From assembly GCA_012522415.1 (NCBI GenBank), contig JAAYKM010000051.1, positions 9,371 through 73,370 of the forward strand: a stretch of DNA of 64,000 bases. The letters are read 5' to 3'. A model generated the notes under the pieces. It saw nothing but the letters and a program-made list of their open reading frames with translations. It made no database searches and was not told the DNA's origin. Positions within the stretch are counted from its first letter, which is position 1; the number at the start of each line of letters is the position of its first letter. Shown here piece by piece: positions 1,030-19,735 of this stretch. The translations under genes were made by a program, and so were the position numbers. This DNA is from Deltaproteobacteria bacterium (lineage in GTDB: Bacteria > Desulfobacterota > Syntrophia > Syntrophales > JAAYKM01).

Positions 1030-1050
1030 TTCAATGATAACGGATCGCTA

Positions 1051-1729: not shown

Positions 1730-2194
1730 GTGAATTTGACCGATAGAGAAAAAAAAATTATCCGTTTCCTCCAGAAGGACCTGCCCCTGGTGCCACGCCC
1801 TTTCGCGGCATTGGAGAAAACCGAAGGCATCCCGGAAGACGAGGTCTTGTCAACGCTTACGCACTGGCTAAGGGAAGGGGTGATTCGCAAACTGGCCGCC
1901 CTGATCCGCCACCGGGAAGCCGGCTTTACCCGTAATGCGATGGTTGCCTGGGCCGTTCCGGCGGAGCACTGTAACGAGACAGGAACCCGCTTGGCCGCGT
2001 ATCGGGAAGTCACACATTGCTACCAGCGAGAGCCCGCATTCCAGGGTAAATACAATCTCTTCACCATGATTCACCTGAAAGAAGGTTCCATGGACACGCT
2101 GCTGAACGACATGTCGACGGCGGTGTCCATTTCGGACTATGTTGTTCTGGAAAGTCTGGCGGAGTTAAAAAAAACCAGCATGGAGTATTTTTGA
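1730..2194 (+). CDS. AsnC/Lrp-fold siroheme decarboxylase-like protein (AhbA/AhbB/NirD-L-G-H family)
   Basis: 154 aa with LTDREKKIIRFLQKDLPLVPRPFAALE...GVIRKLAALIRHREAGFTRNAMVAWAVP...THCYQRE...YNLFTMIH. This matches the NirDL/Ahb pattern as I recall it. It lies immediately upstream of hemL. Confidence 0.65.
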   Translation: MNLTDREKKIIRFLQKDLPLVPRPFAALEKTEGIPEDEVLSTLTHWLREGVIRKLAALIRHREAGFTRNAMVAWAVPAEHCNETGTRLAAYREVTHCYQREPAFQGKYNLFTMIHLKEGSMDTLLNDMSTAVSISDYVVLESLAELKKTSMEYF

Positions 2195-2195
2195 C

Positions 2196-4423: not shown

Positions 4424-4482
4424 GTCCGGTGCGGTCATGGTCATACCAAAGGTAACCCCATGTGTCCGGTGAGGAATTTTGT

Positions 4483-4511
4483 TTGACTTGACCTTGTTTT
4501 CATGTTATTAG
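4483..4511 (+). promoter_or_regulatory. Candidate sigma70 promoter for atpZ-atpI-atpB
   Basis: TTGACT (4483-4488), 17-nt spacer, TATTAG (4506-4511). The annotated ATG at 4522 would then be nearly leaderless, and no SD precedes it. Confidence 0.35.
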
Positions 4512-4521
4512 CCCCACGCTG

Positions 4522-4803
4522 ATGGATAAGGAGACAAAGAAATCTCTCATGCAGATGACCTACGCAAGTACCGTGGGCATCTTCATGGCTATCGTGATCT
4601 TTGGCGGCGTTTATTTAGGCAGCTACCTGGATCGCAAGTTTGGAACCGCCCCTTATTTCACCATTCTTTTGCTTATCCTGGGTGTGTTTGTCGGATTTCG
4701 CAATGTCTATCTTTTAATTAAAAAAATTAAGGATGATACACCCTTCATAAAGGGTATAAAAAGTGAACCCCATAGAAAAAGACCCCCTCCAGCGAAAAAT
4801 TGA
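4522..4803 (+). CDS. AtpZ/AtpI-family small membrane protein (ATP synthase protein I2)
   Basis: 93 aa with two TM helices: YASTVGIFMAIVIFGGVYLGSYLDRKFGTAPYFTILLLILGVFVGFRNVY. It sits at the head of the F0 genes. Confidence 0.7.
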   Translation: MDKETKKSLMQMTYASTVGIFMAIVIFGGVYLGSYLDRKFGTAPYFTILLLILGVFVGFRNVYLLIKKIKDDTPFIKGIKSEPHRKRPPPAKN

Positions 4804-5158
4804 GATCTTCAACTGGATCCTGTTGGGGATGTTTCTCCTTATCAGTCTTCTTTTCCTGTCTCCTCGTTTCGCTCTGGGCGTCTTTCTGGGTGGTCTGATC
4901 AGTATCATCAATTTCTACTGGCTTTACAAAAACATGAAGGATGTTTTCGCACGGCTCAGCGGTTCGGCCAAGTCGGCGATGATGTTCAAATACTTTATTC
5001 GGCTGGCCCTGACGGCCGTGGTTCTTTTTTTCATTGTGACAAGCAATAAAGTGGACATTTTAGGGCTTCTGGTCGGCCTTTCCGTGGTGGTCATCAACCT
5101 GGTGCTGACGGCGATCATGACCCTGTCAAAAAAAAACTGTCTGGAGGAGGTTAAATAA
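4763..5158 (+). CDS. atpI: ATP synthase subunit I-like membrane protein
   Basis: 131 aa with about 4 hydrophobic helices, located directly upstream of atpB. The start is uncertain; the GTG at 4763 overlaps atpZ by 41 nt. Confidence 0.6.
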   Translation: MNPIEKDPLQRKIEIFNWILLGMFLLISLLFLSPRFALGVFLGGLISIINFYWLYKNMKDVFARLSGSAKSAMMFKYFIRLALTAVVLFFIVTSNKVDILGLLVGLSVVVINLVLTAIMTLSKKNCLEEVK

Positions 5159-5161
5159 ACA

Positions 5162-5824
5162 ATGCATCCCCTGTCTTTTCTGGAACTTGCATTCCCCGGT
5201 ATGCCCACCCATGTGACCTACACATGGTTGATCATGATCGGACTGGTGATTCTGTCCTTCCTTGCAACCCGGCGCCTGAACATCAATCCGGGCGGCGTTC
5301 AGAACGTCATGGAAGTGATTATCGACGCCATGTACAAACTGCTGCTCGACACCATGGGCGAGCACGGCAAGAAGTTCTTCCCCTTGATCGCGACGATCGG
5401 TCTTTTTATTTTGACCTCGAATCTCCTGGGTCTTATTCCGGGCTTCGAATCACCCACGGGCAATCTGAACACCAACCTCTGCATGGCCCTGGTCGTCTTT
5501 TTCCTGACGCATATCGTAGGCGTCAAGATCCATGGCTGGAAATATCTGAAACAGTTTGTCGGCCCCAGTCCCTGGCTTGCGCCTCTGATTCTCCCCATCG
5601 AACTCGTCGGGCATCTGGCCCGTCCCGTTTCCCTGACCTTCCGTCTGTTCGGAAACATCGAGGGGGGACACATCGTTCTGGCCGTTCTGATCATCCTGGT
5701 GCCCCTGCTGATCCCCCTGCCGATCTTGGTTCTGAAGCTCCTGATCTGCTTCATCCAAACCTTGGTTTTCATGCTCCTGTCCATGATGTACATTGCAGGG
5801 GCAATGGAAGAAGCCCATTCCTGA
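5162..5824 (+). CDS. atpB: F0F1 ATP synthase subunit a
   Basis: 220 aa with the conserved Arg in [20 protein letters not shown] and multiple TM helices. Confidence 0.95.
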
Positions 5825-5842
5825 CCCTTTATCGACTTACCG

Positions 5843-5873
5843 GAGACCGGTCATCACGACCGGTCTCTTTTTT
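5843..5873 (+). terminator. Rho-independent terminator directly after atpB
   Basis: Perfect 10-bp stem gagaccggtc / gaccggtctc with loop atcac, followed by TTTTTT (5868-5873). Confidence 0.85.
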
Positions 5874-5891
5874 GTACGGATGGAAAAGAAC

Positions 5892-5926
5892 AGAATTTAT
5901 ACCCGGATATCCAATAGAATTTATAC
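5892..5926. repeat. Two direct copies of agaatttatac, 24 bp apart, in the AT-rich spacer
   Basis: agaatttatac occurs at 5892-5902 and again at 5916-5926. Function is unknown. Confidence 0.5.
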
Positions 5927-6348
5927 GCCTGTATACGGGGTCATTTCGACCGCAGGGAGAAACCTTGCTTCTCTCTGAATCCGTTTATCCCGGTCGGGAG
6001 GAGATGACTTCTCCTTGATATTCTTAACCCAATCCGTCAATCTGATTCATAATTTCTTGTTGGCAACCTTCTCGGAGCCTCTTACTCTATATCCCGCCTG
6101 CATAGGGGGCATTTCTACTTACCGCAATGAAATTAAGCGGATACGTATCGTTCCATGGATATGCTTGAAGCCGACATATTATACGGATCCCCATAATACA
6201 CCACAACAAATGAACACCATGGTATAAGTTATTGAATATATGGCTTTATACAATGGTTTAGCCGCAATATTTGAAGGCGTGTTATGCGGATCGGTCACGT
6301 CAAGTAATGCTTGCAATTTCGGGTAACGAGTCCATCTACATCTTCCGA

Positions 6349-6556
6349 TTACGCTGCCTTTCGTAGTGCTGCCCGTTGCTCTTCTATGAGCGACGGTTTC
6401 ACATAACATCTTTCTGTCGACCAGTCCTCGCCATATTCAATCAGGTAGGCGCTGACAAGGCGAAGATAACTATCCATGCCGGGGAAGATGCCCGCAACCC
6501 GGGACCGTCGCCGAATCTCCCGATGGAGGCGTTCGATGATGTTGACGGAGTGAAAC
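6349..6556 (-). pseudogene. C-terminal remnant of an IS256-family (mutator-type) transposase
   Basis: NIIERLHREIRRRSRVAGIFPGMDSYLRLVSAYLIEYGEDWSTERCYV matches the conserved C-terminal block of IS256 transposases (xERLNxEIRRRTxVVGIFPN...LRLV). The ~300 N-terminal aa, including the DDE core, are missing. The N-terminus of the track ORF is read through the neighbouring terminator hairpin. Confidence 0.7.
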
Positions 6557-6557
6557 A

Positions 6558-6598
6558 AGAAAGCCCCCCGGTAGTTTATTACGACCGGGGGGCTTTCT
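6558..6598 (-). terminator. Strong hairpin downstream of the 1149-aa gene
   Basis: Perfect 15-bp stem agaaagccccccggt (6558-6572) / accggggggctttct (6584-6598) with an 11-nt loop. On the minus strand it is followed by the T-rich cttgtttc. It starts 22 nt after the stop codon. Confidence 0.7.
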
Positions 6599-6619
6599 AA
6601 TTCAGATATTAAACCCTTC

Positions 6620-9600
6620 TTACAATTCAAGTTGCTCGAATTCCCAGTTCACCTGGGCACTCAGATAATCGGCCCCGTTCGTATAACGGATCTCCCCATC
6701 CGCAAGGGGGGCGGGACGAACCACACCCTGTTTGGCCGTCCTCAGACTGATGAAACGGGCACGAAGCGCCATTCTCAGTTTTTCCGTCTTACCGACTTCG
6801 GGAATCCTGTCGAATATGGTTGGATAATCCGCCTTCAGAACCTGGGCAAAGCGGTTCAGGCGACGTTCACCGGACAAAAATGTCCCGGCCCTTTCCCCGG
6901 AAACCTTTAGGGGGAGTATCAGGTCCGCTTTTTCCACGGTCGGCGTCAGGAACGCGTCAGCCACCACGATGAAATCCGCTTTACCGACAACTTCATCTGC
7001 AACTTTCCCGCTCACCGCACAGCCGACGGGATCCTCTCCCAGGATGAACAAGCCTCTTCGGGCCGCTATATCCTCGGCAAAGCCCATTTCCAGAAGACCC
7101 TGGGCGTTTGGCGTCAAAGGCAGGCCGAGAACCGGACAACCCTTTAACACCGCAAGATTCGCCGCCCACCGTGCCGTGTTGCCCCCAGCCCTGCCGGAAA
7201 TGACGATAACAGGATTTTGTGCCCCGTTCAGGGCCGACAGCAGATCGTCATCCTCTTCGCAGGCGGCCACCTTGAGTCCTTTGAACAGCCCCTTCGTCTC
7301 CGCAGTCTTGACGGATTTCGCAACCGTTTTACAGACACCGGCCAGTGTCGCCGCGGGCGAATGGCTGACGTCGAAGATGTCGAAAGCATGATGCAGCGTC
7401 CTCGGGGCTTCCATCCCCAGACCATACAGGGTAGCGCCGTTCTTTTTCGCGCCGCGGATTTTGACACCGAGAACCGTCATCATGTCTTCATCGTCGAAAC
7501 CAACCGCAAGAACCATGTCGGCCGCATCCACCACATTATAACTCCAGGGTGAGCCGACCGTGCCAAACGTTTCGTTGATCGCCTCACCAACCTTGAGGGA
7601 GTCGGAGGAGAAAGAGGATTTCAACCCTTCCGGCATGTTTTTATCAACGAAGACATCGAGCTGAGCCAACTCCTCCAAGGTCAGCCGACCTCCCGCATAT
7701 ATCCCCCAGTCTTTACCCGGTATGCGGCCCACACTACCCACAAGAATTTTGTGTGCTTCCGTCCAGGAGATGGGTTTCAGGATATCCCCGTCCCGTTTCA
7801 TCGGTTCCGTAATCCGGGGCAGGTTGTTTATATAGCGGGTACCGTAACGCCCGTACCTGCACAGGAGACCGTTATTCGGATCGCGTTCCGGTGCCTTCAC
7901 AGAGACAAGGCGGCCGTTCACCGTGGCCAGATTGAGATGACAACCGAATCCCCCGAAGGTGCAGACACCCGGCATCTCGATCGCATCCTCCGGGACCGTC
8001 TTGGTACCGGGGAACCTTTCATCGAGCGATCCCGTGGGGCAGTTCTGTACACAGGTACCGCAAGACTCGCAGTCCGTCTCCTGCAAGGCGACCCCGAACG
8101 AAGGCTGAACCGTCGTCACGTAACCGCGGTCGACGAAACCCCAGGCTCCAACATGCCTCAGTTCATCGCAAGCCCGTACACAGGCACCGCACAGGATGCA
8201 TTTGTTCTGATCTTTCATAATGAAAGGATGCCTCAAGTCCGGTTCGAATCGAATTTCTCCTTTCGTTTTCAGCGCTGTCGGTTCCGCGTCGACGACCTTG
8301 CCGATCTGCCGCAGTTCGCAGTCATACTGGGAGAAACACCCGCATTCCAGGCATCGACCGGCTTCCCGGCGCAATTCCCCTTCAGCAAAACCCAGCTCGC
8401 ATTCCTTGAAATCCTTGATACGCTCTTTGGGATCAACCATGGGCATCTCGGCACGCGGTTCAGCAGGATAACGGTTCTTCCACTCCTCTTCGAGCGGTCT
8501 GAGATCTCCCAAGGATTTTCCGCGCTGAACCGAGTAGACGCCGGGAATGGGCGTCAAATCCCGTCCTTTCAAAAAACGGTTGATCTGGGTGGCCGCATTG
8601 CGCCCGTCGGCGATACTCTCGACCACCGTGCAGGGGCCCCTCATGGCATCACCGCCGGCGAACACCTCCGGAATATCCGTCTGGAAAGTGTCCTCATTGA
8701 CCACAAAGGTCGACCATCTGGTCGTCCGGACCTCGCAATCGGCGCCGATACAGGCGACATCCGGTTCCTGGCCGATCGCCATGATGATCGTATCCGCCTG
8801 GAGCATGAATTCCGACCCCTCGATGACGACCGGGCTGCGCCGGCCCGATGCATCGGGTTCACCCAGTTCCATGCGAACGGATTCAATGGATTCCATTCTC
8901 TTCTTCCCGTGAATCCTAACCGGATTGGTGAGAAAGTGAAAGCGCACGCCTTCCTCTTCCGCATCGTGCACTTCAATGGGATCGGCCGGCATTTCCGCAC
9001 GGCTTCTCCGATAAACGATATAGCAGTTTTTCGCACCCAGACGCAGAGACGTCCGAACGGCATCGATAGCCGTATTTCCACCGCCCACGACCACCACCGT
9101 TTCGCCTAGGTCAAATTGCTTGCCGAGTTTCACATCCCGCAGAAAGTCGATCCCCTGATAGACCCCTTCGAGTTCCTCGCCGGGAATTCCCATGGACTTG
9201 CTTACATGGGCGCCGACGGCCAGGAAGACCGCATCAAAGGATCGCCGCAGACCATCGATTGTCACATCCTTGCCCAATTCCGTGTTGTAGATGAATTCCA
9301 CGCCCAGAGACTCGATTTCCGCGATTTCCGCATCCAGCTCATTTTGGGGCAGGCGGTAATCGGGGATGCCGTACCGGGTCATGCCGCCCGCTTTCGGCAG
9401 TTTTTCGATGATCATGCACTGATGTCCCTGCTGGGCCAGGTAATAGGCACAGGACATCCCGGCCGGCCCGGCGCCGACGATGGCCACGGTCTTACCGCTT
9501 GACGGAGCGACCGGTGGGTTGTAGCGGGTACCCCTTTCGAAATTCCTGTCCGAGATGAATCGCTTGATGGACTTGATCGAAACCGTTTCATCCACCAGAT

Positions 9601-10069
9601 TGCGGCGGCATTCCTTCTGACATGGAGCGGGACAGACCCGGCCCAGGATACCGGGAAAGGGGACCTTCTCCTTGATGAGCTTTTCCGCGTCGTGGTATTC
9701 GCCGTTGGCGGCCAGTCCCACATAACCCTGGATATCAATGCCCGCTGGACAGGTCATGTTGCACGGGGCCACACAATCCGCAAAATGATTGGAAAAGAGC
9801 AGTTCTATGTCGAGTTTTCGAAGACTCTGGATCAGTTCGGTCTCCGTATTGATTGTGATACCGTCAAAAACCGGCGCCGCACAGGCCACCACGGGATATC
9901 TCGCGTTTTTCTGTTCGACAAGACAGACCCGGCAGCTTCCGAAAGGGTCGATCTGAGCGCGCTCACAGAGAACGGGAATGCCGATTCCGTTTCGTTTGGC
10001 CACTTCGCGAATGGTTTCACCTTGTCTCGCTTCATATTCTCTACCGTTTATTCTAACTTTGATCGCCAT
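6620..10069 (-). CDS. Chimeric FeS flavoprotein: NuoG/FdhA-type 2Fe-2S N-terminus, GltD/NfnB-like NAD(P)H module, 4Fe-4S domains, and a cofactor-less-looking molybdopterin-oxidoreductase-like domain (StnC/SfrAB-like)
   Basis: 1149 aa with an AGGAGG SD. Motifs in order: GSCRVCLVE (2Fe-2S fold); CVAPCNMTCPAG and CPAPCQKEC (GltD N-terminal clusters); VAIVGAGPAGMSCAYYL, VVVVGGGNTAIDAVRT and FAGGDAMRG (FAD/NAD(P)H folds); CILCGACVRAC and CESCGTCVQNCP (ferredoxin motifs). The MopB-like region then opens with a degenerate cluster motif, CTFGGFGC. Confidence 0.85.
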   Translation of the reverse strand: MAIKVRINGREYEARQGETIREVAKRNGIGIPVLCERAQIDPFGSCRVCLVEQKNARYPVVACAAPVFDGITINTETELIQSLRKLDIELLFSNHFADCVAPCNMTCPAGIDIQGYVGLAANGEYHDAEKLIKEKVPFPGILGRVCPAPCQKECRRNLVDETVSIKSIKRFISDRNFERGTRYNPPVAPSSGKTVAIVGAGPAGMSCAYYLAQQGHQCMIIEKLPKAGGMTRYGIPDYRLPQNELDAEIAEIESLGVEFIYNTELGKDVTIDGLRRSFDAVFLAVGAHVSKSMGIPGEELEGVYQGIDFLRDVKLGKQFDLGETVVVVGGGNTAIDAVRTSLRLGAKNCYIVYRRSRAEMPADPIEVHDAEEEGVRFHFLTNPVRIHGKKRMESIESVRMELGEPDASGRRSPVVIEGSEFMLQADTIIMAIGQEPDVACIGADCEVRTTRWSTFVVNEDTFQTDIPEVFAGGDAMRGPCTVVESIADGRNAATQINRFLKGRDLTPIPGVYSVQRGKSLGDLRPLEEEWKNRYPAEPRAEMPMVDPKERIKDFKECELGFAEGELRREAGRCLECGCFSQYDCELRQIGKVVDAEPTALKTKGEIRFEPDLRHPFIMKDQNKCILCGACVRACDELRHVGAWGFVDRGYVTTVQPSFGVALQETDCESCGTCVQNCPTGSLDERFPGTKTVPEDAIEMPGVCTFGGFGCHLNLATVNGRLVSVKAPERDPNNGLLCRYGRYGTRYINNLPRITEPMKRDGDILKPISWTEAHKILVGSVGRIPGKDWGIYAGGRLTLEELAQLDVFVDKNMPEGLKSSFSSDSLKVGEAINETFGTVGSPWSYNVVDAADMVLAVGFDDEDMMTVLGVKIRGAKKNGATLYGLGMEAPRTLHHAFDIFDVSHSPAATLAGVCKTVAKSVKTAETKGLFKGLKVAACEEDDDLLSALNGAQNPVIVISGRAGGNTARWAANLAVLKGCPVLGLPLTPNAQGLLEMGFAEDIAARRGLFILGEDPVGCAVSGKVADEVVGKADFIVVADAFLTPTVEKADLILPLKVSGERAGTFLSGERRLNRFAQVLKADYPTIFDRIPEVGKTEKLRMALRARFISLRTAKQGVVRPAPLADGEIRYTNGADYLSAQVNWEFEQLEL

Positions 10070-10077
10070 AATTCCTC

Positions 10078-11841
10078 CTATTCGACAATGATCGCGTCGA
10101 ATTTACATGCGTCCTTGCAGAAGCCACAACGGGTGCATAATTCATCGTCGATTTGGTGAACCTGCTTGCGTTCACCGGTTGCGGCACCGACGGGACACGT
10201 CTTCGCACAGAGTGTGCAGCCAGTACATTTATCGGCCACCACCCGGTAAGTGATCAGGGCCTTGCATTTTTTGGCCGGGCATTTCTTCTCGCGGATATGG
10301 GCTTCGTATTCGTCCCGGAAATAACGCAGTGTGGTCAGAACCGGGTTCGGAGCGGTCTGACCCAGACCGCAGAGCGATCCCTTGATGATGGCGTCACAGA
10401 GCTTCTGAAGCAGGGGGATATCCTCCTCAGTGCCCTCTCCCGCTGTAATCCTCTCGAGGATTTCAAGCATCCGTTTTGTACCGACGCGACAGAAGGTGCA
10501 TTTGCCGCAGGACTCCTCGACCGTAAAGGAGAGGAAATAACGGGCAATGTCGACCATGCAGGTGCCCTGATCCATAAAGACCATACCGCCAGAACCGACA
10601 ATGGCCCCGGTCGCGGTAATATTTTCGTAATCGATCGGCGTATCATGAAGATGAGAGGGAATACATCCGCCCGAAGGCCCGCCCATCTGGACGGCCTTGC
10701 ACTTGCCGTTGTTGATGATGCCGCCGCCGATATCGTTGACGATTTCGTTGATGGTTATCCCCATCGGCACCTCAATCATTCCCCCGCGATTGATCTTGCC
10801 GGCGAGAGCGAACACCTTGGTTCCCTTCGACATGTCTGTGCCGTACTTGGAAAAGGCGGCTCCCCCCTCCCTGATGATGTAGGGGATGTTGGCGTAAGTT
10901 TCGACGTTGTTGTTGTTCGTGGGTTTCCCCCAGATACCCTGCGTCGCCGGGAAAGGTGGGCGGGTGCGGGGCATGCCCCGTTTCCCTTCGATGGACGCGA
11001 TCAGGGCCGTTTCCTCCCCGCAGCCAAACGCGCCGGCTCCCTCGATGACATGGAGGGTAAAGCTGAAGTCGGTGCCCAAAATATTTTTCCCCGAATAGCC
11101 TCTCGCCTCCGCCTGATTGATGGCCAGGCGAAGCCTCTTCACAGCCAGCGGATATTCGGCTCTGACGTAGAAGAACCCAACCTGGGCGCCCACCGCATAG
11201 GCACCGATGGTCATCCCCTCGATCACGCCGTGGGGATCGCCTTCCAGGGTGGAGCGGTCCATAAAGGCACCGGGGTCCCCTTCATCGCCGTTGCAGATCA
11301 TATATTTTTCCTCGCCCGGGGCATCCTTTGCGAACTGCCATTTCATTCCGCAGGAAAAACCTGCTCCTCCACGCCCCCGGAGTCCGGAAGCACGAACCTG
11401 ATCGATAACATCCTGACGGTCCATGGTCTTCAAAACTTTCTCCAGGGCCCGGTAACCACCGGCCGCAACGTAGTCATCGACGTTTTCCGGATCGATGACA
11501 CCGATATTCTTGGTGGCCAACTTGACCTGCTTGTCCTGATAGGATGATTGCGTCGTCGGGTGATCGGGGTGAAGGATGATCCAGTCTTCAAGGTGTGTCC
11601 CTTTAGCCAGAGCATCAATGAATTTTTGAACCTTGTCAGCCGTCAGATTACCATAGGTGTATACTTTCTCTTCCTCGATCACATCGATAATCGGTTCCAG
11701 ATAGCACATACCGTTACAGCCTGTTTTCCTGATCTCAAAATCACTGTTCCCGTCAAGCAATTCATGTAGCTTGTTCAGGGTTTCTTCCGCTCCTGCGGCA
11801 ATCCCGCAGGAATTGTATCCAATACGGAGGATTTTCATCAT
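10078..11841 (-). CDS. NuoF/HydB-like NADH-binding FMN FeS flavoprotein subunit
   Basis: 587 aa with GRGGAGFSCGMKW, CNGDEGDPGAFMDR and SCGKCTFCRVG (N3 cluster). The C-terminus has 2x[4Fe-4S] motifs CTGCTLCAKTCP and CTRCGFCKDAC. There is a thioredoxin-like N-terminal domain. Confidence 0.9.
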   Translation of the reverse strand: MMKILRIGYNSCGIAAGAEETLNKLHELLDGNSDFEIRKTGCNGMCYLEPIIDVIEEEKVYTYGNLTADKVQKFIDALAKGTHLEDWIILHPDHPTTQSSYQDKQVKLATKNIGVIDPENVDDYVAAGGYRALEKVLKTMDRQDVIDQVRASGLRGRGGAGFSCGMKWQFAKDAPGEEKYMICNGDEGDPGAFMDRSTLEGDPHGVIEGMTIGAYAVGAQVGFFYVRAEYPLAVKRLRLAINQAEARGYSGKNILGTDFSFTLHVIEGAGAFGCGEETALIASIEGKRGMPRTRPPFPATQGIWGKPTNNNNVETYANIPYIIREGGAAFSKYGTDMSKGTKVFALAGKINRGGMIEVPMGITINEIVNDIGGGIINNGKCKAVQMGGPSGGCIPSHLHDTPIDYENITATGAIVGSGGMVFMDQGTCMVDIARYFLSFTVEESCGKCTFCRVGTKRMLEILERITAGEGTEEDIPLLQKLCDAIIKGSLCGLGQTAPNPVLTTLRYFRDEYEAHIREKKCPAKKCKALITYRVVADKCTGCTLCAKTCPVGAATGERKQVHQIDDELCTRCGFCKDACKFDAIIVE

Positions 11842-12320
11842 TCAGCCTCCTTCTTCTTGTACTCTTTCATAACTTTGCGAACCTTGTCCGTGGAGAGTTT
11901 CCCATAGACTTTTTCCCCAACCATGATGACGGGGGCCAGGCTACAGCATCCCAGACAAGCCACCGACTCGACGGTAAACAGCATATCCGGCGTCGTCTCT
12001 CCCGACTTGACATTCAGCGCACCCTCAATGGCTTCGGTAAGGCCGTCGGCATTCTGAACATGACAGGCCGTCCCATGACAGACACGAACCAGGTTTTTTC
12101 CGACGGGCGTCAGGCGGAATTGGGCGTAAAAAGTGACAATTCCATAAATGCTGGCGGTTGAAACTCCCATACTTCTGGCAACACGTTCCAGAGCTTCCTT
12201 TTCCAGGTAGCCCTTGTGCGCCTGAACCTGCTGAAGCACGGTGATGAGCGTTCCCTTATGGCCCCTGTAACGCTCCAGTACCTCATCGACATAACTAAAA
12301 TCCAGTTGTTCCATTTTCAA
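11838..12320 (-). CDS. NuoE/HydC-like thioredoxin-fold 2Fe-2S subunit
   Basis: 160 aa with CHGTACHV ... CLGCCSLAPV. It overlaps the NuoF-like gene by 4 nt. Confidence 0.9.
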   Translation of the reverse strand: MKMEQLDFSYVDEVLERYRGHKGTLITVLQQVQAHKGYLEKEALERVARSMGVSTASIYGIVTFYAQFRLTPVGKNLVRVCHGTACHVQNADGLTEAIEGALNVKSGETTPDMLFTVESVACLGCCSLAPVIMVGEKVYGKLSTDKVRKVMKEYKKKEAE

Positions 12321-12708
12321 CTCCTTGGAAGAAGACTCAACGCCACCGTGAAACCCGACACGGAGAAGCAGAGACCCGTACGGAACGGGTATCCGCCTTT
12401 ACCTGAACGAAGGCGTTTTCTCGAAGACGCTTATCAAACGATTACGGTGGAAAGTCGCCTAACCACCATAGGCCGGGGGGAGAAACTTGAATTGGGTACC
12501 ACCCGACATTCTATGTATAAAAGGGCATTCAGCGATCATGGCGGACAGTTACCTGTGTTTTCAATGATGAGAATACCTTTCAATCGCGGCGACATATACT
12601 AAAAAGGCGGGTGAAGGTCAAGGAGAAAAAACGGAACGGGAGAGGCAAAATGGACGTCTCTTCCACACCTAAGGTCCTGTATTTTCGGCTGTTTTATCAG
12701 GGGCTATG

Positions 12709-14718
12709 CTATACCAGACGCTCCGCCACAATCTCCGCAATATCCTTTACGACAATCTGTCCGGAAGCATTTTCGTCCTTCAGTCCGTCCTCAAACATGG
12801 TCATACAGTACGGACACGCCACACTGATCACTTCCGCATCCGTTGCCAGGGCATCTTTTGTCCGTTCGACATAAATTCGGCTTCCCTGATTTTCCTCGAG
12901 CCACATGCGGCCGCCGCCTGCGCCACAACAGAAACTCTCCGAACCGTGGCGGCTCATTTCTACAGGCGCCTTTCCGCCGCAGACCCTGGCGATGATCGCT
13001 CTCGGCTCCTTGTAGATATTGTTATAACGTCCGAGATAGCATGGATCATGGTACGTGACGCGCATCCCCGTTTCCCCTTTCAGTTTGAGTACGCCGCTCT
13101 GCAGGAGCTTGTGAATGAGTTGGGAATGGTGGATCACCTCGAAATCGACGCCGTACTGCCCGTAATCGTTTTTCAATGTACTGAAACAATGAGGACAGTA
13201 GGTGATGATTTTTTTGATCCCGTACTTTTTGAAGATTTCTATATTGTCCCTCACCAGGATATCGAAAACATATTCGTTCCCCAGTCTCCGCAGAGAATCG
13301 CCACAGCATTTCTCCTCATTACCCAGCACACCCCAGGAAAGACGGGCGGCGTTGAGGATCTTCGCCACAGCCGTCGTCACCATCCTGCCCCTTGGATCAA
13401 AGGATCCCGAACAGCCCACATAGAAGAGATACTCGACTTGGGCGCCATGTGAAAGGATCTTGATGTCCCGGTCATGGACCCACTTTTCCCGTTCATTCGG
13501 TGCGATTCCCCAGGGATTGAATCGCTGTTCCGAATTTTCGAAAAAAGCGATCAATTCTTCCGGGAAGGCAGCCTTTTCCACAACCAGATGACGCCGGAGC
13601 CCAATCAGTTTCGGTACATGTTCGATAAAAACAGGACACTGCTGCATGCAGGCCCCGCATGTCGTACAGGACCAGATGGCATCAACCGAAATGCTTTCGT
13701 CACGCGTATTGATAAGCGGAACAGCCATCTCGGCCGAATCGGGAGCGGAAACAAGCGTGTCCGGGGGTCTGGAAGCAAGCAGAATCCGGCCATTGGCCAA
13801 GAGATTGAGTTTTCCCTCATGAACAACCTCCTTGGGATTCAGGGGTTTGTGCGTGTTATGGGCGGGGCAGGCCGCCTGGCACCGGCCGCACTCCGTGCAG
13901 GACAGGAAATCCAGCAGGTCCTTCCATGAATATTGGACTATCTTTGAAACGCCAAAGCGTTCCCCGCGACGAAAGATCATCCGGGGAACGGTATTTACAA
14001 ATGAGGCATTCCTGAAAAAGATATTCGGTATCGCCGTCAGGATATGCAAATGTTTGCTGTAGGGCAGATAATTGAGGAAAAACAAGAGTACCAGGGCATG
14101 AGTCCACCAGAATATCCGTCCCAGGGCATGGCCCCCTTCCTGGGTCAGTCCCCGGAAGAGAGGCGCCAGGAGAGAAGAAACCGGCATGGTCCAGCGGGAA
14201 ATCGCTTTTCCGTTCAACCGGATTTCGCTGGCATGATAACCGAAGTAGGCAACTATTAGAACGGCAACCAGACCCAAAATCACAAAGGCATCCACTGTCT
14301 GGTCGATATAGGCGGGACGGAAGAACATCCGCCGAATAACGGCGTTGAAAACGCATACCAGCACCACAACCGACATGATATCGGCCATGAAGAGCATGGC
14401 CCCATAGGGGATATCTCCCAAAAACCAGAAGGAGAAGCGGGGGAAGACACCTGAGACCAGAAACTCCACATTCATCAGAAGGAGAAACATGAAACCCCAG
14501 AACAGAAGCAGGTGGTTCACGCCGAATCCTTCACTTACAACACGAACCTGGGCGAAGCCATACACCAGCATACCCCGGAATCGCGACCAGAGACGATCAA
14601 AACGATTCTCACTCCGCCCGAGGCAGATCATGGCAAAGAGGCGGTACAGGTTGCGCAAAAAGAAACCCACCGCACCGACAAGAATGAACAGGAACAACAA
14701 GGATTCGACGGAACTCAA
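12709..14718 (-). CDS. Membrane FeS oxidoreductase: N-terminal NarI/DsrM-like polytopic domain, 2x[4Fe-4S], and two CCG (HdrD/GlpC-like) domains; putative Etf:menaquinone oxidoreductase
   Basis: 669 aa. The first ~230 aa are hydrophobic helices carrying His residues (NHLLLFWG, WWTHALV, SKHLHILTA). These are followed by CTECGRCQAACP and CTTCGACMQQCP, then the Cys-rich CCGDS, CPHCF, DPCYLGR, FCCGAGGG and CPYCMTM. TTG start with GGAG SD. Confidence 0.85.
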   Translation of the reverse strand: MSSVESLLFLFILVGAVGFFLRNLYRLFAMICLGRSENRFDRLWSRFRGMLVYGFAQVRVVSEGFGVNHLLLFWGFMFLLLMNVEFLVSGVFPRFSFWFLGDIPYGAMLFMADIMSVVVLVCVFNAVIRRMFFRPAYIDQTVDAFVILGLVAVLIVAYFGYHASEIRLNGKAISRWTMPVSSLLAPLFRGLTQEGGHALGRIFWWTHALVLLFFLNYLPYSKHLHILTAIPNIFFRNASFVNTVPRMIFRRGERFGVSKIVQYSWKDLLDFLSCTECGRCQAACPAHNTHKPLNPKEVVHEGKLNLLANGRILLASRPPDTLVSAPDSAEMAVPLINTRDESISVDAIWSCTTCGACMQQCPVFIEHVPKLIGLRRHLVVEKAAFPEELIAFFENSEQRFNPWGIAPNEREKWVHDRDIKILSHGAQVEYLFYVGCSGSFDPRGRMVTTAVAKILNAARLSWGVLGNEEKCCGDSLRRLGNEYVFDILVRDNIEIFKKYGIKKIITYCPHCFSTLKNDYGQYGVDFEVIHHSQLIHKLLQSGVLKLKGETGMRVTYHDPCYLGRYNNIYKEPRAIIARVCGGKAPVEMSRHGSESFCCGAGGGRMWLEENQGSRIYVERTKDALATDAEVISVACPYCMTMFEDGLKDENASGQIVVKDIAEIVAERLV

Positions 14719-14779
14719 GGGAACTCCTTTCTATTTACCGGTAAAGCCTCATGACGATTTTCACGACACCTTTTGTCTT

Positions 14780-16177
14780 CTACGGACCTGTAACCTGTCC
14801 GGGCTGTTTTTCCAGATCCAGCCAGAACAGATTCGAGATGTCCGATGAGACCGGGTGTGCCCAGCTCGTGTGCAATTTATCGATCAGAGCGGGGAGGATT
14901 TCGAAAACATCCCCGACGATGCCCAAATGGGCAACCTGAAAGATCGGCGCATTGCGGTCTGTGTTTATCGCAATGATATGCTCCGAATCCTGCATCCCAA
15001 CCAGGTGTTGAATCGCCCCGGAAATCGCGCAGGCAATGTAGAGTTTGGGACGAACGGTTTTCCCCGTCTGGCCGACTTGACGTTCATGGGGCATCCAGCC
15101 GGCATCCACAGCGCTGCGCGAAGAGGCCACCACACCCCCCAGAAGATCTGCCAGATCGTACAGTATCTTGAAATTCTCCGCGTTCTGAAAACCCCGGCCA
15201 CCGCTGACAATCACATTGGCCACCGAAATATCGATGGCGCCCTCAGTTTTCAGGGGAATGATCTCCAGCACGGCGCTGTTCAGAAGATCGGTCTGCAACC
15301 CGAAGGGTTCCGTCATGACAGGCCCCGTTCGACCGGGGTGTACATCCGGCTTCGGCATCACGTGGGGACGGACGGAAGCCATCTGGGGGCGTGCCGTTTC
15401 CGTTAGAATCGTCGCCATGATGTTGCCCCCGAATGCTGGGCGCGTCTGCTCCAGAAGCCGGCGGCTCTTGTCGATCGCCAGACCCGTACAGTCCGCGGTC
15501 AGTCCCGTCTGCAACTCCGTGGCAATGGCTCCCGCCAGATCACGCCCCAACCCCGTTGCCCCAATCAATATCACTTCCGGTTTGTATTTCCGAATCAGGG
15601 TCAAGGCCCCGTGCAGATAGGGCTCCGTACGATAGTGTTCCAGAAGCGGATCCTCTGTCATAAAAACAACGTCGGCCCCGTACGCAAAAGCCTCATCCGC
15701 CAGATGTTTGATGTTCGAACCGAGAACGAACGCAGACAATTGGACCTGCAAGTCCCTGGCAAGGGTCCGACCCGCGCCGAGAAGTTCCCAGGACACCGAA
15801 TGGGCCTTGCCTTCGGCCTGTTCCACAAACACCCAGACACCTCTCCAGGCATCGAGAGACGATTCCGTTTTCTCCGTCATCGATGCCGAGGCATCCTCGT
15901 CTTCAACCGGCTCACTGTGCTCAGCACTCCCCTTGTCGAGTTCTTCCAGCAACCTCTGCTCCTCCGGAGTAAAAGCCATCCGAAGCGCCTCCGCCGGGCA
16001 AACCTTGACACATTTCGCGCAGCCGATACACTTGTCCGTCAGAATGATGGGCTCATCCTTTTCGTTCATTTCTATGGCATCCACCTTGCAGGCCGCTTGG
16101 CAGCGGGCTCCGCATGCAATACACTTTCCGGGGATCAATTCAGCCTTGCCGCGGGGTCTCTTGACTTTTTTTTCCAT
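14780..16177 (-). CDS. Electron transfer flavoprotein large subunit (EtfA/FixB type) with a fused N-terminal 2x[4Fe-4S] ferredoxin domain
   Basis: Ferredoxin domain motifs are CIACGARCQAAC (CX2CX3CX3C) and CIGCAKCVKVCP, followed by an acidic linker. The Etf alpha fold follows with TRPAFGGNIMATI and SGAIQHLVGM. The ATG at 16177 is preceded by GGAG; the track start at 16183 is a GTG. Confidence 0.85.
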   Translation of the reverse strand: MEKKVKRPRGKAELIPGKCIACGARCQAACKVDAIEMNEKDEPIILTDKCIGCAKCVKVCPAEALRMAFTPEEQRLLEELDKGSAEHSEPVEDEDASASMTEKTESSLDAWRGVWVFVEQAEGKAHSVSWELLGAGRTLARDLQVQLSAFVLGSNIKHLADEAFAYGADVVFMTEDPLLEHYRTEPYLHGALTLIRKYKPEVILIGATGLGRDLAGAIATELQTGLTADCTGLAIDKSRRLLEQTRPAFGGNIMATILTETARPQMASVRPHVMPKPDVHPGRTGPVMTEPFGLQTDLLNSAVLEIIPLKTEGAIDISVANVIVSGGRGFQNAENFKILYDLADLLGGVVASSRSAVDAGWMPHERQVGQTGKTVRPKLYIACAISGAIQHLVGMQDSEHIIAINTDRNAPIFQVAHLGIVGDVFEILPALIDKLHTSWAHPVSSDISNLFWLDLEKQPGQVTGP

Positions 16178-16264
16178 CGTCACTCCTAAAAAATCGGCCC
16201 ATGAGGGGACATAGGCAGGATTTGCAAACCGGCAAATCCATGTTCAACAGTTCTCTTCGCTCCG

Positions 16265-17083
16265 TCAGTGCCCCAACGATATGAAATCCCAGTCCAGAAG
16301 CTTTTTGAAAACCATGTCCACCGCCCTGTCCATCTTTTCTCCCTCCCCATCGACGATCTCACCCTTGTCCCGCTGCGGGGCAAAAATCTTGCGCACCTGT
16401 GTCGGGGATCCTCTCAAGCCGATCATATCCGGATCCAGTTTCAGAACGTCATTCGTCCAGATCGGCACTTTTGCTTCCAGCGCCTCCAGACGCCCCGGGA
16501 CCGTTGGGTAACGGGGCACATTCACTTCGCGAACCACCGTAATCAATACAGGCAGCCTCGACTCGACGATCTCGTGCATTTCCTCGAGAACGCGCCGAAC
16601 AACAATGATCCGTTTTTCCTTGTGAATCTCCAGAATACGGTCCACCAACGTCAGTTGTGAATATTTCAGCCGACACGCAATTCCCGGTCCCACCTGGGCC
16701 GTGTCACCGTCGATCGTCTGTTTACCGCATAAAACGATATCCACCGGCTTTTGCCCGTCGAGCCTGCGGATCGCTTCCGACAAAACCAGACTTGTCGCCA
16801 ATGTATCGGCGCCCCCGAAGGCACGATCACTGAGCAATACGGCATCGTCTACACCAAGGGCCATGGCCTTTTTCAGAACCGCGTCCGCCGCGGGGGGACC
16901 CATCGAAATGGCTGTCACGCAGCCGCCATATTTTTCTTTCAAACGCAAGGCCTCTTCCACCGCATGATTGTCAAAAGGATTCGTAATAAACGGCACCCCT
17001 TCGCGGACCAGGGTGTTCGTTACAGGGTCGATGATCACCTGTGTTGTGTCCGGTACCATTTTCACACAGACAACATAATGCAT
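16265..17083 (-). CDS. Electron transfer flavoprotein small subunit (EtfB/FixA), bifurcating-type sequence signature
   Basis: 272 aa with VCVKMVPDT, DRAFGGADTLATS, CGKQTIDGDTAQVGP and GSPTQV. From memory these match Acidaminococcus/Clostridium bifurcating EtfB rather than canonical ETF-beta. Confidence 0.85.
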   Translation of the reverse strand: MHYVVCVKMVPDTTQVIIDPVTNTLVREGVPFITNPFDNHAVEEALRLKEKYGGCVTAISMGPPAADAVLKKAMALGVDDAVLLSDRAFGGADTLATSLVLSEAIRRLDGQKPVDIVLCGKQTIDGDTAQVGPGIACRLKYSQLTLVDRILEIHKEKRIIVVRRVLEEMHEIVESRLPVLITVVREVNVPRYPTVPGRLEALEAKVPIWTNDVLKLDPDMIGLRGSPTQVRKIFAPQRDKGEIVDGEGEKMDRAVDMVFKKLLDWDFISLGH

Positions 17084-17260
17084 GGTTCTCTCCCGTTCGA
17101 TTTTATTTTGACGCGACCATCACGGCGTTTCGGCATCATATTCGTACAAACAAATAAATTTTTCAAATACATTTGATGGGGGATGGCACACCGCCGAATT
17201 CAATGCGCCGGAGGATTGTTCAAGAGAGGATTTTCCAAGCCGGATCCTTTATTGCCTATG

Positions 17261-17290
17261 AAAAAGGCCGGGATCGTTCGATCCCGGCCT
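17261..17290 (-). terminator. Rho-independent terminator of ppsA
   Basis: aggccgggatcg / cgatcccggcct palindrome (17265-17290). On the minus strand it is followed by TTTTT (plus-strand A-run 17261-17265). Confidence 0.8.
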
Positions 17291-17323
17291 CCCTCACATC
17301 ATATGCCTTGCAGCCGATAATTC

Positions 17324-19735
17324 CTAGGCTTTCCCTAATTTTCGTTCCGCATCCAATATTTCCGCGGTGGTCTTGAGTACCGTATCGGAGTTGAGGGATA
17401 TGCTGTTGATGCCGTATTCGACCAGAAGTCTCGCCACTTCGGGGTAATCACTGGGTGCCTGACCACAGATACCGATTTTTTTACCGATTTTTCTTGCCTT
17501 GCTTATGGCCATCCTGATCAGTTCCTGCACGGCGGCGTCCCGTTCGTCGAAAATGTGGGCCACTTCTGCGGAATCACGGTCCAACCCCAACGTCAGCTGG
17601 GTCAGGTCATTGGAGCCAATGGAGAAGCCGTCGAATATTTCCCCGAATTCTTCAAGCATGATCACGTTGCTGGGAATCTCCACCATCATATAAATTTCAA
17701 GACCATTCTCGCCCTGGACCAGGCCCCGGTCAGCCATGGTTCGGACAACCTTCCCGGCTTCCGTCAACGTCCGGCAAAAAGGGATCATCAACTTGACATT
17801 GGTGAGCCCCATGACGTCCCGCACACGCTTCATGGCATCACATTCCATAAAGAAACCATCTCTATAGCGGTCATCGTAGTAGCGGGAAGCACCCCGGAAA
17901 CCGATCATCGGGTTTTCCTCGACGGGTTCAAAGAAAGAACCACCGACGAGGTTATAATATTCGTTGCTCTTGAAATCACTCATACGCACGATCACGTCAT
18001 TCGGGTAGAAGGCGGCACCGATCTTGGCCACCCCTTGCGCCAGACGGTCGATAAAAAACTCTCTCCGGTCCGCATATCCTCTCGTAATTCTGTCAATTTC
18101 CGCACGAACAGCTTCGTCCGTCACCTGGTTGAAATTGACGAGGGCCATGGGATGAACACTGATGAAATGGCTGATGATGAACTCCAGGCGAGCCAGACCT
18201 ATGCCGTCATTTGGTATGGAGGCAAGGGAAAAAGCATTTTCCGGATTGCCGACATTCATCATGATCTTCGTGGATGGGCGCTTGAGCGTGGTGACGTTAA
18301 CCCGGTTCACATCATATTTCAGAATGCCTTCGTATACCCTTCCCACTTCACCCTCGGCACAGGAAACGGTCACCTCCTTGACATTTTTCAAGACCTCCGT
18401 ACCGTTTTCCGTACCCACAATACAGGGGACCCCAAGTTCACGGCTTACAATCGCCGCATGGCAGGTTCTGCCTCCCCGATCGGTCACAATGGCTGCGGCG
18501 ATCTTCATGATGGGCTCCCAGTCAGGATCGGTCATTTCAGTCACCAGGACCTCGCCCGCTTTGAAAGTCTTGATCTCCTTTACCGATTCGATGATGTGCA
18601 CCGGCCCTGCGCCAATCCTGGAGCCGACACTGGTTCCGAGCAGAATGGGCGTTTTTTCTTCACAGAGAACATAATTTTCGAGGACACTCCCGTCCTTTTG
18701 GGATTGCACGGTTTCAGGCCTCGCCTGCAGGATGAAAAGTTCCTGGGTGATACCGTCCTTGCCCCACTCGATATCCATGGGTTTGAAATAACCCGCCTTT
18801 TCTGAATAATGTCCTTCAATGATGGCGGTCCATTGGCCCAGTTTCAGGACCTCGTCATCGCTCAGGCAAAAATTGTGGCGATCCTCTTCGGGCACCGGGA
18901 CAATCTCCGTTGCGCTCTCCTTTTTGGAATCGGAGTAGATCATCTTGATCTCCTTGGTCCCCAGTTTCTTCTGGATAATGGAACGGAAACCTTCCTTCAG
19001 GGTCGGTTTAAAGACATAAAATTCATCAGGATTGACGATCCCCTGAACGACGGTCTCCCCCAAACCATAGGAAGCGGTAACCAGAATTGCCTCCTTGAAA
19101 CCCGATTCGGTGTCGATAGAAAAGATAACCCCCGAGGCCCCCTGATCCGAGCGAACCATCTTTTGTACCCCAATGGATAAAGCGATAGTCAGATGATCGA
19201 AACCCTTATCCACCCGGTAGGAAATCGCCCGATCCGTAAACAGGGAAGCGAAACACCTCTTGCACGCATCAATCAGGGCGTCCTCGCCCCGGACGTTCAG
19301 GAATGTCTCCTGCTGGCCGGCAAAACTCGCGTCGGGCAGATCCTCCGCCGTGGCGGAACTGCGGACGGCGACATCCGTATCCGGTCCGTACTCTTCACAC
19401 AGGCGCTTATATCCCTTCAAAACTTCATTACGGAGATCATCGGGAAATTTCGCGCTATAAATCAGGGACCGGATCTGCTCGCCTTTACTTCGCAAATTAT
19501 CCAGGTCGTGTGTGTCCAGATCCTTCAGAACATTTTTGATTTCCTTGCCGATTCCCGCGGATTCCAGCAGATATCGATAGGCCGCGGCGGTTACGGCAAA
19601 TCCATCGGGTACGCTCACCCCCTTGGAAGTCAACTCTCTTCTCATCTCGCCGAGGGATGCATTTTTGCCCCCTACCTGTGGAATATCCTTCAATTCTATC
19701 TCATCGAACCACAAAATCAGTTGCTCATCCATCAT
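17324..19735 (-). CDS. ppsA: Phosphoenolpyruvate synthase (pyruvate, water dikinase)
   Basis: GGKNASLGEM, the phospho-His motif TDRGGRTCHAAIVSRELGVPCIVG, and the C-terminal PEP-utilising domain GICGQAPSD. The ATG at 19735 has a GGAGG SD 6 nt upstream. The track start at 19819 adds 28 non-conserved aa. Confidence 0.95.
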   Translation of the reverse strand: MMDEQLILWFDEIELKDIPQVGGKNASLGEMRRELTSKGVSVPDGFAVTAAAYRYLLESAGIGKEIKNVLKDLDTHDLDNLRSKGEQIRSLIYSAKFPDDLRNEVLKGYKRLCEEYGPDTDVAVRSSATAEDLPDASFAGQQETFLNVRGEDALIDACKRCFASLFTDRAISYRVDKGFDHLTIALSIGVQKMVRSDQGASGVIFSIDTESGFKEAILVTASYGLGETVVQGIVNPDEFYVFKPTLKEGFRSIIQKKLGTKEIKMIYSDSKKESATEIVPVPEEDRHNFCLSDDEVLKLGQWTAIIEGHYSEKAGYFKPMDIEWGKDGITQELFILQARPETVQSQKDGSVLENYVLCEEKTPILLGTSVGSRIGAGPVHIIESVKEIKTFKAGEVLVTEMTDPDWEPIMKIAAAIVTDRGGRTCHAAIVSRELGVPCIVGTENGTEVLKNVKEVTVSCAEGEVGRVYEGILKYDVNRVNVTTLKRPSTKIMMNVGNPENAFSLASIPNDGIGLARLEFIISHFISVHPMALVNFNQVTDEAVRAEIDRITRGYADRREFFIDRLAQGVAKIGAAFYPNDVIVRMSDFKSNEYYNLVGGSFFEPVEENPMIGFRGASRYYDDRYRDGFFMECDAMKRVRDVMGLTNVKLMIPFCRTLTEAGKVVRTMADRGLVQGENGLEIYMMVEIPSNVIMLEEFGEIFDGFSIGSNDLTQLTLGLDRDSAEVAHIFDERDAAVQELIRMAISKARKIGKKIGICGQAPSDYPEVARLLVEYGINSISLNSDTVLKTTAEILDAERKLGKA

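Follow-up and report, generated by a model that had tools for sequence, protein, structure and literature searches.

The locus considered here raises the question of whether six adjacent redox genes make up one electron-transfer system or two operons that lie side by side. The genes occupy positions 6620-17083 of a 64,000-nucleotide stretch of contig JAAYKM010000051.1, from a deltaproteobacterial genome of the order Syntrophales (GCA_012522415.1); this whole stretch is referred to below as the window. It had been predicted from the sequence that the block encodes an electron-transfer flavoprotein (Etf, ETF), a membrane Etf:quinone oxidoreductase and an NAD(P)H/ferredoxin bifurcating module made up of a NuoEF-like pair and a "chimeric flavoprotein", and the choice between one system and two adjacent operons had been left open. 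The gene identities and domain calls proved right. As to the choice, the block is likely to represent two neighbouring same-strand operons, etfBA-emo and stnABC, each encoding a known enzyme complex and meeting the other only through shared soluble redox carriers; two operons are favoured by a conserved promoter-like block between the halves and by terminators that follow the first half in relatives.

All six open reading frames (ORFs) were confirmed at the predicted positions on the minus strand, to which the terminators, promoter-like block and leader described below also belong. In the 5' to 3' order of the genes, the first four are separated by 81, 61 and 388 bp, the fourth and fifth overlap by 4 bp, and 8 bp lie before the sixth; the 388 bp at 12321-12708 are, as predicted, the sole large internal gap. 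Domains were assigned with Pfam and NCBIfam, and the architectures agree.

On homology and domain content, the left half is an EtfAB-EMO module (EMO, ETF:(methyl)menaquinone oxidoreductase) of the kind known from Syntrophus aciditrophicus and mycobacteria. The small ETF subunit is encoded by etfB (16265-17083; 272 aa; PF01012 ETF, E 7e-40), and its nearest solved structures are T. maritima EtfB and CarD (about 1e-65). The large FAD-binding subunit is encoded by etfA (14780-16183; 467 aa; PF01012, PF00766 and Fer4), whose start is uncertain, being either GTG at 16183 or ATG at 16177; its N-terminal part is a 2x[4Fe-4S] ferredoxin domain, with Fer4 assigned to residues 17-69, and the protein matches CarE (6fah_A) at 2e-111. 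The membrane oxidoreductase is encoded by emo (etfD; 12709-14718; 669 aa; two PF02754 CCG domains and Fer4) and matches M. smegmatis EtfD (PDB 9ojn_A) with an E value of 4.5e-114, in two stretches within residues 38-663. The protein joins an N-terminal NarI-like membrane domain for haem b to two Hdr-like parts, one resembling HdrC with 2x[4Fe-4S] and the other resembling HdrB with two CCG motifs. In a scan at a Kyte–Doolittle (KD) score of at least 1.5, four segments stood out clearly as hydrophobic (1-28, 64-95, 102-135 and 136-166); a fifth helix, below this cut-off, would lie around residues 200-220. His69, His207 and His223/225 are present in motifs that align with the mycobacterial enzyme (MsEMO), and the iron-sulphur motifs are CxxCxxCxxxC at 274 and 351 and CCG at 471 and 597. 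It is on the membrane segments, the three histidines, these motifs and the 9ojn_A match that the assignment of the left half is based. The architecture and the haem-ligand histidines are as reported for the S. aciditrophicus enzyme, SaEMO, and the three histidines are kept in both the twin-haem SaEMO and the single-haem MsEMO types (bioRxiv 10.64898/2026.08.18.745454), so that twin haems and a single distal haem cannot be told apart from the sequence.

The module shares with the S. aciditrophicus EtfAB-EMO and Mycobacterium EtfD (9OJN) the etfB-etfA-emo trio, the NarI-like, HdrC-like and HdrB-like domains and the three histidines. The enzymes differ in length, with 669 aa in the window against 706 aa for SaEMO and 1042 aa for MsEMO; further differences are the N-terminal ferredoxin domain of the window EtfA and the fact that both Etf subunits are nearest to bifurcating Etfs. 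In an EMO-centred scan of species-representative genomes, which yielded 80 loci, etfB-etfA was found directly upstream of emo in every locus with enough upstream DNA. The trio spans Thermodesulfobacteriota, Dehalococcoidia, Omnitrophota, Bacteroidia and Methanoperedens. On five archaeal contigs (Methanoperedens and other Halobacteriota; L062, L063, L074, L075 and L077) the EMO is 51-52% identical to that of the window; in four of these it is preceded by etfB-etfA (57-62% identity), and L075 begins at EMO. A broad bacterial and archaeal distribution of EMO was stated earlier (bioRxiv 10.64898/2026.08.18.745454), and the archaeal contigs agree with it.

By the same kind of evidence, the right half is a full-length StnABC/NfnABC electron-bifurcating NADH/ferredoxin:NADP transhydrogenase of the Bfu family, and the "chimeric flavoprotein" is its large subunit, StnC/NfnA. 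The three genes are adjacent: stnA/nfnC (11838-12320; 160 aa; PF01257, E 2e-50) for the NuoE-like [2Fe-2S] subunit, stnB/nfnB (10078-11841; 587 aa; PF01512, PF10589 and two Fer4) for the NuoF-like FMN/NADH subunit, which would be the bifurcating core, and stnC/nfnA (6620-10069; 1149 aa; assigned from Pfam and PDB matches) for the large NADPH-binding subunit. A solved StnABC or NfnABC chain is the top PDB match of each subunit (E 1e-43 to 1e-248), and these chains rank above hydrogenase, formate dehydrogenase (FDH) and complex I subunits. The alignments cover StnA and StnB almost completely and, of the 1149 residues of StnC, 3-1079. StnA matches NfnC 9n5u_C best (1.7e-48), followed by 9bov_C and 8oh5_A. 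For StnB the best match is 8oh5_B (2.3e-248, residues 5-587), with 9n5u_B and 9bov_B also matching at full length (to 4e-247), ahead of HydB of hydrogenase, FDH beta and NuoF of complex I; the C-terminal 2x[4Fe-4S] domain (CxxCxxCxxxC at 539 and 569) and the N-terminal extension that mark a bifurcating-type NuoF are both present.

StnC matches NfnA of Caldicellulosiruptor saccharolyticus (9bov_A; E 6.5e-234, query 3-1079) and StnC of Sporomusa ovata (8oh5_C; 1.5e-213, query 3-1074). Its Pfam domains follow the order Fer2_4, Fer4_20, Pyr_redox_2, Fer4, Molybdop_Fe4S4 and Molybdopterin, which corresponds to a [2Fe-2S] domain, a GltD/NfnL-like FAD-NADPH domain, a 2x[4Fe-4S] domain and an FdhF/NuoG-like domain; in the Pfam search no PF01568 (pterin-dinucleotide binding) was found in StnC, and the match to PF00384 was weak (E 4.5e-20). 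Lys169 aligns with K170 and Arg239 with R239 of the S. ovata protein (8oh5_C), in which K170 ligates the FAD-proximal [4Fe-4S] cluster, and which has been described as a 1172-aa fusion of [2Fe-2S], GltD/NfnB-like NADPH/FAD and catalytically inactive FdhF/NuoG-like domains (PMC10482914; PMC11829005). The matching "chimeric" domain order, the two residues and the PDB matches together lead to the assignment to StnABC/NfnABC of the Bfu family. Four StnC homologues (P0035, P0036, P0058 and P0082) are longer, at 1355-1372 aa, and carry PF01568, unlike the window protein; judged by this domain, they may keep a working Fdh-like domain and may represent NADPH-linked bifurcating formate dehydrogenases. 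For the window protein a metal-dependent formate dehydrogenase of the FdhF/FdsA type was rejected, as PF01568 is missing and PF00384 weak; a true FdhA with PF01568 occurs in another locus, L005.

S. ovata StnABC (8OH5/8OH9) is the same in kind as NfnABC of C. saccharolyticus (9BOV/9BP5) and the archaeal Nfn-Bfu (9N5U). The window trio has in common with these enzymes the order of its genes and their contiguity, the C-terminal 2x[4Fe-4S] domain of the NuoF-like subunit, a large subunit of about 1150 aa with identical domain order, the lysine ligand of the FAD-proximal cluster and Arg239. It differs in its host, a member of the Syntrophales (Thermodesulfobacteriota) rather than an acetogen or fermenter, in its long 5' leader and in adjoining etfBA-emo, and its activity is here a predicted one. 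Cys114 of S. ovata is replaced by Ile in the window StnC and by Val in the archaeal enzyme, and outside the clade of the window trio the nearest homologues are only about 36-46% identical. With the two-subunit transhydrogenase NfnAB (NfnSL) the trio would share the overall reaction, and the middle domain of StnC is homologous to NfnB/NfnL (4ylf_B, 1e-88); however, bifurcation in NfnAB takes place at the FAD of NfnB, whereas the Stn FAD is non-bifurcating and bifurcation occurs at the FMN/FeS site of StnAB (PMC10482914).

The evidence for separate transcription of the two halves comes from the internal gap, for which an alignment was made of the window with five relatives (L001, L087, L094, L089 and L084). 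After emo the window holds the remnant of an intrinsic terminator (12624-12700), of which the T-run is kept at 12626-12631 and the hairpin is eroded; the stretch folds at -15 kcal/mol, with a z-score (z) of +0.25. The earlier statement that the gap contains no convincing terminator is thus right for the window, but all five relatives have a GC-rich hairpin and then a T-run right after the emo stop codon (-30 to -35 kcal/mol), with z -3.4 to -4.3 in the three that were shuffle-tested (L001, L084 and L094). Directly downstream of the remnant lies a conserved promoter-like block (12585-12623), in which 3-5 substitutions per 39 nt were counted across L001, L002, L003, L084, L087, L089 and L094, while the flanking intergenic DNA diverges. 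It contains CTTGACC-N17-TATATG at 12593-12622, a pattern with one match in the window against 0 expected from shuffles. The form CTTGACC-N17-TATA[CT]G is also found upstream of stnA in L091 and L098, neither of which has etf-emo upstream; since the block precedes stnA even there, it belongs to stnABC, and we read it as the predicted stnABC promoter. The occurrence of this block with or without etf-emo, together with the post-emo terminators of the relatives, favours two transcription units, and etfBA-emo and stnABC probably have separate promoters.

Between the promoter-like block and stnA lies an unusually long untranslated leader of about 265 nt (12321-12584), which includes a conserved, partly palindromic segment, ATCATTGAAAACACAGGTAACTGTCCGCCATGAT, that may be an operator site. 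The start of stnA is more likely the ATG at 12314, which follows an AAGGAG by 6 nt and agrees with the relatives; the gap would then measure 394 bp. A structured RNA or riboswitch in the gap was considered and rejected, as there was no Rfam match across 5800-17500 in E-value mode and the covariation term of RNAalifold was unfavourable for five leaders. Neither was a conserved small ORF found in the gap, a 26-codon ORF being broken in L001. Sigma-54 sites were found in neither intergenic region, the overall counts being below the shuffled expectation, and the region upstream of etfB gave only patchy alignment among relatives. In L091 (7206-7758) and L098 (2695-3339) the intergenic DNA upstream of stnA measures about 550-640 nt.

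The outer boundaries of the block had been placed at two terminators, and both flanking hairpins are indeed strong. The upstream one (17262-17292) is the intrinsic terminator of ppsA (NF005057, E = 0), with the hairpin GGAGGCCGGGATCG...CGATCCCGGCCTTTTTC, and the region 17250-17300 folds at -33 kcal/mol (z -8.1). The downstream one (6558-6598) is the intrinsic terminator of stnABC, with the hairpin AGAAAGCCCCCCGGT...ACCGGGGGGCTTTCT followed by TGTTTC, and the region 6545-6612 folds at -34.2 kcal/mol (z -7.4).

A comparison of gene order pointed in the same direction. Among the 80 EMO loci, 41 had at least 6 kb downstream and were informative, and stnABC followed emo in only one of these (L001, a Syntrophales metagenome-assembled genome (MAG) with an EMO 85% identical to that of the window). 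The six-gene order is kept in L001, L087, L094, L084 and L081, and L089 is cut within emo; StnC is 84-90% identical to the window protein in L087 and L094, 78% in L084 and 62% in L081. In L091 and L098 (73-85%), stnABC is present without the etf-emo adjacency, and the genes upstream encode TatD, thiamine enzymes, NlpC/P60, a methyltransferase and a lipid-A acyltransferase. In eight more distant loci (L095, L097, L107, L103, L109, L111, L113 and L114), including Syntrophorhabdales and Syntrophomonadaceae, stnABC stands alone among unrelated genes. As each trio is found without the other half, etfBA-emo and stnABC are independently conserved modules, and, from the loci sampled, the six-gene juxtaposition is specific to one Syntrophales clade. 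The original prediction would have fallen had the adjacency been kept in no relative; it is kept in several, so this ground for rejection falls away, although conservation among related Syntrophales is partial, with the order absent from L091 and L098. A single six-gene operon would be expected to have neither an internal promoter nor an internal terminator and to show obligatory co-occurrence of its parts; the block does not conform to this, the terminator taken by itself being ambiguous in the window.

If the block is read as two operons, the following scheme may be proposed. Acyl-CoA dehydrogenases would reduce EtfAB, which would dock on the cytoplasmic HdrBC-like domain of EMO, and from there the electrons would reach (methyl)menaquinone by way of FeS clusters and haem b. 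For syntrophs, the EMO step has been described as driven by the proton motive force in a reverse redox loop, and as reversible in enoyl-CoA respiration (PMC8805022; bioRxiv 10.64898/2026.08.18.745454). StnABC would be a soluble enzyme, in which StnC oxidises NADPH at its FAD and FeS clusters carry the electrons on to StnAB, where bifurcation takes place at an FMN/FeS site; NAD+ and ferredoxin would be reduced there, and in reverse NADPH would be formed from NADH and reduced ferredoxin. In the characterised enzymes, the FAD of StnC oxidises NADPH while NAD+ and ferredoxin are reduced simultaneously by the FMN/FeS site of StnAB, and the coupled reaction may also run in reverse (PMC10482914; PMC11829005). 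stnABC would be transcribed from its own promoter in the 388-bp gap. The etfBA-emo transcript would end, in close relatives, at the intrinsic terminator; with the hairpin decayed in the window genome, some read-through may occur there. We infer that the two complexes are not one machine and form no physical complex, and that they would share only the soluble pools (NADH, ferredoxin and ETF/quinone). A single physical system is not borne out by the analysis, and the proposed link between all four redox pools comes down to two separate enzymes that use common soluble carriers.

Several points weigh against the two-operon reading. Promoter and terminator function was read from sequence alone. The hexamer TATATG resembles a -10 element but does not end in the usual T, and the 12593-12622 block was not called by a generic promoter scan; this generic sigma-70 and terminator scan was uninformative, having missed the conserved block as well as long-loop terminators. 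With the emo hairpin eroded in the window (z +0.25), a six-gene read-through transcript may be made here. EtfA and EtfB are nearer to bifurcating than to canonical Etfs, and the Etf mechanism is not settled by such comparison. Lastly, the six-gene order is found in two divergent Stn branches, that of the window group and that of L081 with its 62%-identical StnC, and classical NfnAB stands directly after etfBA-emo in L071 and L073, which represent one Deltaproteobacteria MAG lineage.

These last two points bear on an alternative that can be entertained tentatively, namely that the neighbourhood is functionally selected, the operons being separate but co-regulated in one redox-balancing scheme for beta-oxidation or enoyl-CoA respiration; Stn might, for example, be a source of reduced ferredoxin or NADPH at a point where S. 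aciditrophicus depends on Rnf. Neighbour-joining trees of StnB and StnC place L091 and L098 between the window group and the more basal L081, which means that the adjacency is either ancestral with one loss or was gained twice; the former would suit a selected neighbourhood. In trees of EMO and EtfA, L006/L008 form the sister of the window group and L005/L007/L009/L011 come next; where the flank is available, stnABC is downstream in none of these. The EtfA and EMO of L081 fall in a different deep branch, with L049, L052, L050 and L039, and its EMO is 51% identical to that of the window against 63-64% to those of L049, L039 and L041. The Etf-EMO of L081 thus comes from a distant lineage, and one Stn clade adjoins two distant Etf-EMO lineages; as far as the trees go, this implies that the L081 locus arose by in-situ replacement or by a second recruitment of Etf-EMO. 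L081 has the same downstream atpB/atpI/atpE synteny as the window.

In the position held by stnABC in the window, L071 (6095-8366) and L073 (5848-8059) carry a non-homologous transhydrogenase, with NfnA (DHODB_Fe-S_bind) and NfnB (GltD-like, 475 aa). In L005 (13042-18461), NuoE-like, NuoF-like and FdhA genes lie about 1 kb downstream of etfBA-emo, after a 138-aa ORF; the FdhA, which has a complete PF01568, appears as two ORFs that break at 16832/16845, as would fit an in-frame TGA read as selenocysteine, and a second NuoEF-like set lies upstream (1940-4568). The two distant Etf-EMO neighbours and the position of NfnAB hint at selection rather than accident, and both the FDH genes of L005 and the report that S. 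aciditrophicus has no bifurcating NuoF-type enzymes and uses Rnf (PMC8805022) would fit the same view. On the other side, NfnAB and FDH occur next to etfBA-emo in one lineage each, most EMO loci have no such neighbour, and L091 and L098 lost the adjacency but kept stnABC. The order stnC-atpB-atpI-...-atpE is kept more widely in the clade than the etf-emo adjacency, including in L091 and L081, so that general synteny retention is strong at this depth and explains much of the six-gene conservation. The remaining neighbours in the window are housekeeping genes.

A narrower version, in which a Bfu-type transhydrogenase is the selected partner of the ETF/EMO module for reverse electron transport in this clade, appears unlikely, although the two distant Etf-EMO neighbours and the position of NfnAB hint at it. 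In its strongest form, which is drawn by analogy with class II benzoyl-CoA reductase, ETF would take electrons from the "dead-end" FdhF-like FeS branch of StnC. If it were true, NADPH/NADH/ferredoxin bifurcation would be wired to electron flow at the acyl-CoA/menaquinone level.

It is rather improbable that EtfAB is itself bifurcating, with a second FAD in EtfB, and that EtfAB-EMO works like FixABCX/EtfABCX by passing electrons from NADH to menaquinone and ferredoxin at the same time, or in reverse. The matches of EtfA and EtfB to bifurcating Etfs (CarDE, T. maritima EtfAB, Bcd-Etf and LctBC) range from 1e-51 to 1e-111 and those to canonical Etfs are weaker (1e-18 to 1e-43), and the N-terminal 2x[4Fe-4S] domain of EtfA resembles that of CarE and LctC. 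EtfB also keeps a DGDTAQVG stretch, which we take to be typical of bifurcating Etfs. In FixABCX/EtfABCX, too, an Etf connects NADH, ferredoxin and quinone, and this Etf falls in the sequence group of the top PDB matches (7koe), but the quinone reductase of the window is an EMO (HdrBC/NarI-like), not FixC/FixX. Moreover, the only characterised EMO-linked Etf, that of S. aciditrophicus, is non-bifurcating, with marginal NADH activity and AMP in EtfB; it too is related to bifurcating Etfs, yet binds AMP (PMC8805022; bioRxiv 10.64898/2026.08.18.745454).

Less probable still is that the six proteins form one physical system or one operon, with a supercomplex in which electrons pass directly between StnABC and EtfAB/EMO, for example from the "dead-end" FdhF-like FeS branch of StnC to ETF, as from class II benzoyl-CoA reductase (BCRII) to ETF. 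The six contiguous same-strand genes and the eroded internal terminator of the window would fit such a system, and the A4/A5 (C1/C2) side branch of NfnA/StnC has no assigned function (PMC11829005; PMC10482914). The nearest described combination is that of BCRII (BamBCDEFGHI) with ETF (BamOP) and EMO in Geobacter metallireducens, where a HydBC/StnAB-like NADH/ferredoxin module, ETF, EMO and menaquinone belong to one electron-flow scheme and high-potential electrons from the StnAB-like BamGH module end up on ETF and EMO (bioRxiv 10.64898/2026.04.10.717634). The window differs from it, however, in that its large subunit has an NADPH-binding GltD domain, which BamI is without, and in that ETF docks in BCRII on the HdrB-like (BamD) domain, which is absent from Stn; no BamB-F homologues were found among the genes scanned beside the block (about 3.5 to 33 kb of the window). 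Further arguments against one system are the conserved internal promoter-like block and the terminator of the relatives, the occurrence of each module alone in nearly all other genomes, the self-contained soluble tetramers seen in the solved StnABC/NfnABC structures, and the lack of an extra adaptor gene in the block.

SfrAB is not known to have NuoEF partners. That the trio is no transhydrogenase at all, but a formate dehydrogenase, a BamGHI-type input module or an SfrAB-like NADPH oxidoreductase, is the least probable reading: the database name of some homologues is 'formate dehydrogenase major subunit' or 'NADPH-Fe(3+) oxidoreductase subunit beta', the C-terminal domain of StnC has the molybdopterin-oxidoreductase fold and BamGH superposes on StnAB (bioRxiv 10.64898/2026.04.10.717634), but StnC has no PF01568, its full-length top matches are biochemically proven StnC/NfnA proteins with a cofactor-free Fdh-like domain (PMC10482914; PMC11829005), the conserved lysine ligand is present and no bamBCDEF genes lie nearby among the genes scanned.

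With two neighbouring operons as the preferred reading, both halves add further members to families that are known and structurally characterised, and their neighbourhood is confined to one lineage. A search for papers on an Etf-EMO plus Stn/Nfn gene cluster in Syntrophales found none; the earlier remark that the combination is not a described unit therefore holds for the adjacency, but not for the halves, which have both been described and structurally solved. For annotation, if this reading is right, the "chimeric flavoprotein" and NuoEF-like genes of these Syntrophales genomes should be renamed StnABC/NfnABC and the "FeS oxidoreductase" EMO. It also follows that some uncultured Syntrophales carry a predicted bifurcating transhydrogenase. 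As bifurcating NuoF-type enzymes were reported to be absent from S. aciditrophicus (PMC8805022), the presence of Stn in this clade constitutes a modest physiological difference, and Stn-bearing Syntrophales may have another way of balancing ferredoxin and NADPH, for example one that depends less on Rnf. A new link would be added to models of syntrophic reverse electron transport only if the neighbourhood is in fact under functional selection.

The other neighbours of the block in the window are ppsA, a YkuD transpeptidase, a type III glutamine synthetase, MnmG and subunits a and I of ATP synthase. The ATP synthase genes are scattered at 575-5824: atpI (4763-5158) and atpB (5162-5824) lie on the plus strand and converge on stnC, and atpE (about 1054-1407, minus strand) lies several kb away from them, beside an RF-1-domain gene (575-985). 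The same scattered layout was observed in L084, L081 and L086. Between the stnC terminator and atpB, a 93-aa ORF (6349-6630, minus strand) matches only the C-terminal end of IS256/Mutator transposases (PF00872, 333-377 of 379; NF033543) and represents an insertion sequence remnant. The spacing between stnC and atpB is the same as in the window in the 99%-identical contig L086, and measures only about 90 bp in L081.

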